Assembly (NCBI RefSeq): GCF_041248615.1
Contig: NZ_CP158426.1
DNA: 64,000 nt
DNA from: Escherichia coli
GTDB taxonomy: Bacteria > Pseudomonadota > Gammaproteobacteria > Enterobacterales > Enterobacteriaceae
Direction: 5' to 3' (one strand)
The position numbers and the translations under genes were made by a program. Numbering within the stretch: position 1 is the first letter of the stretch; every line of letters starts with the position of its first letter. Below the pieces are notes generated by a model. It was not told the DNA's origin. It did no database searches and saw only the letters and a list, made by a program, of their open reading frames with translations. Positions 7,862 through 8,542 of this stretch are shown in pieces.

Positions 7862-8542
7862 ATGTCTGATGATCGTTCCCGGCATGATCGTCTGGCGGTT
7901 CGCTTATCACTCATTATCAGCCGACTGATGGCCGGAGAATCTCTGTCACTAAAGACACTGTCAGATGAATTTGGCGTTACAGAACGTACTTTACAGCGCG
8001 ATTTTCATTAGCGTCTGGTTCACCTGGATTTAGAGTACAGAAATGGCAGGTACAGCCTCAGACGACAGAGCAGCCCAGGTGCGATCCCTGAAATGCTTTC
8101 TTTTATACAGAATACCGGGATCGCACGGATACTTCCGCTCCGGAACGGACGACTGATAACCTGTCTTACCGACAACCAGGAGCCCTCTCCCTGCCTTATC
8201 TGGCTACCGGCGCCGGATATCACTGCAACGTTCCCCGAGTGTTTCTCGCAACTCATCCTGGCAATAAGACAGTGTATCCACATCTCTCTGATGACTGAGC
8301 GATGGTATCCGTCACTGGAGCCCTGCCGGCTCATTTATTACAGCGGTAGCTGGTATCTGATCGCGTTACAGAAGGGAAAACTGCAGGTCTTTCCTCTGGC
8401 AGATATCAAATCAGTCAGCCTGACATCAGAACGGTTTGAACGGAGAGGCCACATCCACAGTCTGGTCGCTGAAGAGCGTTTTATCTCCGCCCTGCCACAT
8501 TTCTCTTTCATCCATAAACTTATCAACACCTTTAACCTGTGA
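7862..8542 (+). pseudogene. yfjR-like HTH transcriptional regulator interrupted by an in-frame TAG at codon 50
   Basis: ATG at 7862 gives [49 protein letters not shown] then TAG (8009-8011). The same frame continues RLVHLDLEYRNGRYSLRRQ… to 8542, so the tracked 149-aa ORF (8093-8542) is only the downstream part. Confidence 0.6.

Follow-up and report, generated by a model that had tools for sequence, protein, structure and literature searches.

The YfjR-like regulator gene at 7862-8542 (+ strand) of the window, by which the whole analysed stretch of 64,000 nucleotides is meant, is very probably an ordinary loss-of-function nonsense pseudogene, with a single amber codon in place of the glutamine codon at position 50. 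Translation from the native start would end after the recognition helix and yield a 49-residue peptide without the wing or the WYL domain, and the truncated regulator is expected to be non-functional, as judged from its sequence. The pseudogene status of this interval is already annotated publicly in RefSeq. The evidence for the lesion, for its spread among Escherichia coli genomes and against the restoration of the product by suppression, readthrough or reinitiation is presented below, together with the context of the gene in a decayed genomic island and a candidate operator upstream.

Reading frame and nonsense codon

The frame opened by ATG 7862 spans 681 bp (226 codons and a stop codon) and contains one internal stop: it is interrupted only by TAG at 8009-8011 (+ strand; codon 50) and is then open to TGA at 8540-8542. 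The positions of the start, the amber codon, the internal ATG at 8093 and the end, as given in the preliminary description, were all exact on re-reading of the frame. The 49 sense codons from the native start (7862-8008, + strand) contain the helix-turn-helix and are preceded by the Shine-Dalgarno sequence GGAG at 7849-7852 (+ strand; -6.1 kcal/mol), with a 9-nt spacer to ATG 7862. Among ATG, GTG and TTG, the first in-frame codon past the TAG is ATG 8093 (codon 78), and the residual 149-aa ORF from this codon (8093-8542, + strand) would encode, if translated, a WYL-domain fragment without the HTH.

The preliminary description had proposed a comparison with intact alleles for CAG at this codon, and CAG was found at codon 50 in each of the five aligned intact alleles (WCHEC005237, 268.2, CFT073, 2/0 and CFSAN061771). 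From this comparison, the lesion is read as one C>T transition at 8009, by which CAG (Gln) became TAG. The assignment of both sides of the stop to one YfjR-like protein was also borne out, and the alignment with K-12 YfjR passes straight through the stop.

For the annotation, the record NZ_LT599825.1 (E. coli NRZ14408) was used, in which 96001-160000 corresponds to the window (100% identity with a 7-kb query). RefSeq/PGAP marks exactly 7862-8542 in this record as a pseudogene ("WYL domain-containing protein; internal stop"), and each of the 13 further TAG-carrying records for which the annotation was fetched has the 'internal stop' flag as well.

A sequencing or assembly error, with C as the true base at 8009, would be compatible with a difference of only one base from the common allele. 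However, T was recovered at this position in 30 complete genomes, which differ in laboratory, host and country of origin, and on four or more haplotypes; among these genomes is a second, near-identical assembly (OY754371). The probability of such an error is negligible, and this explanation is regarded as excluded.

Domain architecture and relation to K-12 YfjR

For the protein analyses, codon 50 was read as Gln, which gave a repaired product of 226 amino acids. This product showed 43% identity to K-12 YfjR by BLASTP over residues 1-224 (E = 2e-53). The WYL domain (Pfam PF13280) was detected at residues 152-185, including the SWYL motif, with 23.7 bits vs a gathering score of 21.8, and Pfam HTH_11 matched residues 14-48 (profile positions 1-36 of 55) with 23.1 bits, just under its gathering score of 25. 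PADLOC WYL models matched the repaired protein with E = 2.6e-18 and 3.9e-6, respectively, and the PADLOC model PDLC01457 spans the N-terminal region (residues 10-88). No family match was obtained for the repaired protein in the NCBIfam search and no significant match in the PDB sequence search, in which the best entry (3fvv, E = 0.24) was treated as noise. The intact protein is thus predicted to be an HTH-WYL transcription regulator of the COG2378/YafY type, with an N-terminal winged helix-turn-helix and a C-terminal WYL sensor domain. The stop is located at the end of the HTH_11 match and ahead of the WYL match, directly after the HTH recognition helix and upstream of the presumed wing, so that no uninterrupted frame joins the HTH and the WYL domain.

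The label "YfjR-like" in the preliminary description was found to be appropriate on the grounds of the full-length identity of 43%, the shared HTH and WYL architecture and the place downstream of a YfjP-like GTPase gene. K-12 YfjR (b2634, CP4-57 cryptic prophage) likewise has an N-terminal HTH and a WYL motif, with a length of 233 aa vs 226 aa here, and its gene is likewise located downstream of a YfjP-type GTPase gene, with antirestriction, RadC-like and CbtA-type toxin-antitoxin genes farther on. On the other hand, K-12 CP4-57 has yfjQ between the GTPase gene and the regulator gene, and none is present in the window; Glu of K-12 YfjR is aligned to codon 50, where the window has TAG; and the island of the window is at selC, whereas CP4-57 is at ssrA. 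Because the identity is only 43% and the gene is in a selC island instead of CP4-57 at ssrA, the YfjR-like gene is assigned as a paralogue of K-12 yfjR, not as an orthologue.

K-12 YfjR is itself barely characterised: no DNA binding was detected by a ChIP-exo screen (PMC8464067), it appears in a gSELEX survey as a single-target factor whose listed target is its own operon (PMC8249747), and a biofilm phenotype is cited in a review (PMC9308461). The intact E. coli alleles of the gene in the window (for example, WP_001278650.1 of CFT073 and WP_001282919.1 of strain 2/0) are 97-99.6% identical to it in nucleotide sequence, keep the 681-bp frame, have the same genes as neighbours and are annotated as functional under the names 'WYL domain-containing protein', 'helix-turn-helix transcriptional regulator' or 'YafY family protein'. 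BrxR, CapW, PafBC and DriD are HTH-WYL regulators of mobile and defence loci. They follow the same order of a winged HTH and then a WYL domain, and the gene in the window likewise heads its presumed target locus, with an inverted repeat upstream. The protein of the window is much shorter than BrxR, CapW, PafBC and DriD and has no recognisable C-terminal extension of the WCX type.

Frequency, haplotypes and origin of the TAG allele

The TAG-specific search was performed against 5426 complete E. coli genomes with a 55-mer that has the T at its centre, which places the T within each 28-nt megablast seed. The T allele was found in 30 of the 5426 genomes at 31 places, all with 100% identity; this genome count includes duplicate or clonal records, among them eight of identical length (5,067,659 bp). 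The gene is present in 1640 genomes at 2015 places, and the TAG is accordingly carried by about 1.8% of the gene-bearing genomes and by 31 of the 2015 copies (about 1.5%). The exact CAG 55-mer was found in 1378 genomes, a count that refers only to the band of at least 99% identity, as the query was offset by 2 nt and the TAG genomes also matched it at 98.2%. The TAG-carrying strains are from humans, a dog and poultry, and from Qatar, the UK, Korea, China, Japan, Denmark and the USA.

The TAG was located on at least four gene haplotypes and in three flanking backgrounds. Haplotype A, the type of the window, was found exactly in 17 genomes and with G464A (C155Y) in three more, and an A-like haplotype with D3N, T145A and G216 was found in one genome (GPEC102). 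Haplotype B was found in one genome (MS8345) and consists of the very common intact "2/0" allele with the C>T change only. Haplotype C, which is 18-19 sites apart from A, was found in eight genomes (1223, M21170, five GPEC strains and AF56). Haplotypes A, B and C are 3-6% apart from one another in their upstream flanks, and all TAG haplotypes are identical over a tract that covers at least 7955-8229. Every allele of the sample resembles a patchwork.

Haplotype B is the sole TAG haplotype with an intact twin, differing from strain 2/0 only at gene position 148. For haplotypes A and C, no intact allele within one mismatch was found among the 1640 genomes; the nearest intact allele is CFT073 (99.6%) for A and is at 98.8% for C. 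The presence of the TAG on several haplotypes, the mosaic flanks and the restriction of an intact twin to B point to an exchange between island copies, by recombination or gene conversion, and not to clonal inheritance. The TAG would most likely have arisen once on a 2/0-type allele and then moved by recombination into other backgrounds, with homologous recombination between island copies, through single crossovers on either side, carrying the TAG into the other alleles.

Recurrent independent mutation at codon 50 was considered as the alternative for the same distribution. The gene contains 66 sites at which one substitution gives a stop codon, 19 of them by a G:C>A:T transition, and three hits on one site among the 66 are improbable, as is the recurrent origin. 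With regard to a mutational hotspot, no Dcm (CCWGG) or Dam (GATC) site was seen by inspection in the local sequence TTCATCAGCGTC.

Substitutions in the TAG lineages

Among the 16 alleles compared, four substitution events are restricted to the TAG lineages and all of them are nonsynonymous (D3N, D9Y, T145A and C155Y), and the intact alleles show 9 nonsynonymous vs 10 synonymous events. The all-nonsynonymous changes may point toward relaxed constraint, but the difference of 4:0 vs 9:10 rests on few events and is not significant (one-sided Fisher p about 0.08 by our own arithmetic). No second disabling lesion was found in any TAG allele examined, and all of them are still 681 bp in length. At this low divergence, such an absence is expected and is uninformative; it would fit continued constraint downstream of the stop as well.

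Possible suppression and readthrough of the amber codon

The preliminary description had left the choice between a pseudogene and a gene that depends on amber suppression or on reinitiation. The first option is supported by the PGAP flags and by the decayed module described below, suppression found no support in the supE search or among the tRNAs of the window, and reinitiation received no positive support.

Within the 64-kb window, the only tRNA gene is that of tRNA-Sec (selC, 25487-25581), and tRNA-Sec reads UGA. For the supE test, K-12 glnV was converted into a supE-specific 55-mer with the anticodon CTA; the test thus covers the supE-type only. The supE 55-mer was found in 158 genomes, with C600, DH5alpha and DH1 recovered as the positive control, and the matches among the 60 listed were mostly recognisable laboratory K-12 strains. 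When the supE and gene queries were combined, the total was 2015 + 158 places, as expected, and with the place counts unchanged, no supE-type tRNA-Gln(CUA) was found in NRZ14408 or in the 21 other listed TAG genomes of haplotypes A and B. Natural isolates seldom carry strong amber suppressors. With no supE-type suppressor in NRZ14408 or in the listed TAG genomes and with only tRNA-Sec in the window, the efficient decoding of the TAG by an amber suppressor tRNA of the host is given a probability close to nil. Pyrrolysine-type decoding was rejected as well on the grounds that the window holds no tRNA but tRNA-Sec; E. coli is not known to have a Pyl system.

A different possibility is a leaky gene, in which near-cognate reading of UAG by tRNA-Gln(CUG) would insert the ancestral Gln and supply a little wild-type regulator, enough for a DNA-binding protein of low copy number. 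Several features agree with it: the ancestral codon is CAG, so that misreading as Gln would give back the wild-type protein; the stop is followed by C (TAG C); and no TAG allele examined has a second lesion. UAG followed by C is reputedly the weakest termination context of this codon, and in E. coli without a suppressor, UAG is reputedly read with insertion of Gln. However, the stop is missing from about 98% of the copies and is thus not conserved as a recoding site, neither a stimulatory structure nor a stimulatory element was found, the changes restricted to the TAG lineages are all nonsynonymous, and the downstream module is deleted in NRZ14408. Basal readthrough of UAG is expected to amount to about 1% at most, and any Gln-readthrough product would be, by this estimate, a small fraction of the normal amount. 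The leaky gene is therefore judged to be very unlikely.

Programmed readthrough or recoding was rejected with regard to the presence of the TAG in 31 of 2015 copies and to the Glu at the aligned position of K-12 YfjR. Neither dedicated decoding machinery, among the tRNAs of the window, nor a stimulatory signal, in the terminator and structure scan of the region, was found.

Possible reinitiation at ATG 8093

Reinitiation at ATG 8093 would convert the locus into a split gene, of which the second part would be a 149-aa WYL protein without the HTH. Such a protein could take up ligand as a sink, or it could be a dominant-negative partner of YfjR-like paralogues in the same cell. ATG 8093 is the first in-frame start past the stop and scores best for an SD-like motif among the 12 candidate starts inside the gene, the 149-aa ORF keeps the Pfam WYL match in full, and many genomes carry 2-4 paralogous copies as possible partners. 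The SD-like motif is AGGTG at 8077-8081, 11 nt from the ATG, and ATG 8093 is 81 nt past the stop.

Against these points, the duplex with the anti-SD is weak (-3.8 kcal/mol vs -6.1 kcal/mol at the native start), and 26% of the positions in 7000-11999 are equal or better. Positions 8077 and 8078 (216 and 217 of the gene) are polymorphic and the motif is lost in the intact alleles of CFT073 and 268.2, which argues against an ancestral internal start; K-12 YfjR has Val, not Met, at the aligned residue; and NRZ14408 has only one copy of the gene (1 place). Little credence, of only a few chances in the hundred, is thus given to the split gene, and the loss-of-function pseudogene is retained as the preferred interpretation.

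Island context and decay

The island occupies 1-25581 of the window, is inserted at selC and is much rearranged, with IS3, ISEc31, two IS66 copies, IS91 and IS3 fragments and IS1; its integrase gene is at 24003-25187. Directly upstream of the regulator gene, an intact gene of a YfjP-like GTPase is located at 6775-7659 (+ strand; MMR_HSR1, E = 4.5e-15; WP_001116795.1), the conserved partner of the regulator gene in this module. The full downstream module was seen in AR_0085, next to a regulator allele identical to that of the window, and in K-12 CP4-57. Complete modules, as seen in AR_0085, WCHEC005237 and CFT073, contain after the regulator gene a 678-bp gene, DUF905, DUF932, antirestriction, RadC-like JAB and DUF987 genes and the CbeA/CbtA pair. 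In the window, the downstream module gene (8690-8980, + strand; RefSeq pseudogene) is truncated by ISEc31 at 8980 and misses its C-terminus, and the rest of the module, with DUF905, DUF932, antirestriction, RadC-like and CbeA/CbtA genes, is absent and replaced. The CDS of the ISEc31 transposase is at 9018-10231. An IS3-family element is located at about 5036-6309, and the pseudogenes flanking these elements are at 4115-4990, 6321-6674, 8690-8980 and 10242-10358. Past ISEc31, the island contains a TonB-dependent receptor/DUF4198 pair, the IS66 copies, the IS91/IS3 fragments, a 3.5-kb autotransporter gene (19313-22810) and IS1.

Several observations were made on the surroundings of the module. 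The GTPase/yfjR module appears inverted relative to the selC/setC flanks when the window is compared with AR_0085. A 1224-bp hypothetical gene (WP_001107219.1), intact in AR_0085 and WCHEC005237, is split by the IS3-family element into 4115-4990 and 6321-6674. For the gene after the regulator, the ORF list gives 8585-8986 (133 aa) vs the PGAP start at 8690; the stronger SD is at 8690 (-6.5 kcal/mol), and the product from 8690 opens with a sequence that resembles a signal peptide when read by eye. The TonB-dependent receptor (656 aa) and DUF4198 genes at 10525-13305 are bracketed by IS elements, and a pair of about 95% identity was found on plasmid NC_017647.1 (strain CE10) and, for other strains, at differing places in the chromosome, which suggests an IS-mobilised cassette for iron or haem uptake. 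Past dinD, a second mobile element at 45443-63990 encodes a PerC-family regulator, an Abi-family protein, phage DNA ejection/injection proteins, a TOPRIM/DUF927 primase, an antirepressor and a tyrosine integrase (62722-63990), and a 264-bp CDS at 58464-58727 is called 'nicotinic acetylcholine receptor subunit beta' in RefSeq, which is an implausible name.

With the downstream operon cut away by ISEc31, the loss of the regulator would be without obvious local cost and would belong to the decay that the island shows in general. In AR_0085, E19035 and strain 104, the TAG allele stands before a module whose annotated part is intact; the argument that nothing is left to regulate is therefore limited to the window. 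In MS8345, the module is mostly intact and its DUF932 gene is flagged as frameshifted.

Candidate operator upstream of the regulator gene

Upstream of the regulator gene, an inverted repeat with the arms GACAGGATGTGTCG (7672-7685) and CGACACATCCTTTC (7787-7800) was detected, each of 14 nt and complementary to each other at 13 of 14 positions. A third copy of its core, ACACATC, is located at 7854-7860, between the SD and the ATG, and ACACATC is thus present three times in 216 nt vs 8 times in the whole 64 kb on both strands. The level of the inverted repeat was reached by 5 of 200 shuffles. The spacer of 200 bp is AT-rich, and the arms of the repeat are invariant in seven backgrounds with otherwise differing spacers. 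The motif of the repeat was absent upstream of K-12 yfjR. Taken together, the inverted repeat is a plausible candidate for the operator of the HTH-WYL regulator. In the promoter and terminator scan, sites were no more numerous than the shuffled expectation; the only promoter-like site, at 7712-7739, matched at 9/12 positions, and no promoter is claimed.

Significance

The regulator gene heads a conserved island module of E. coli, in which the GTPase gene, the regulator gene, small genes, antirestriction and RadC-like genes and the CbeA/CbtA toxin-antitoxin genes follow one another in this order, and we infer that the intact protein autoregulates its own module. A more speculative proposal is that the TAG allele is a favoured 'off' or 'split' variant, which would have spread through several island backgrounds by recombination, owing to an altered expression of the antirestriction and toxin-antitoxin genes of the module, with residual activity from Gln readthrough or from the WYL-only fragment. 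Such residual activity would explain why no second lesion is found across the 30 genomes; the proposal is nevertheless rated as a long shot, and the ordinary nonsense pseudogene remains the preferred reading.

The lesion as such matters little, since it is already in RefSeq as a pseudogene and the change of CAG to TAG is a textbook mechanism. The allele does provide a clean example of a single nonsense mutation recombined across the mosaic island backgrounds of E. coli. YfjR-like HTH-WYL regulators head very common island modules, yet they are functionally uncharacterised. For these regulators, the TAG strains with modules annotated as intact (AR_0085, E19035 and strain 104) represent natural knock-outs of possible use in comparative transcriptomics, and the conserved inverted repeat upstream of the gene represents a testable candidate operator.
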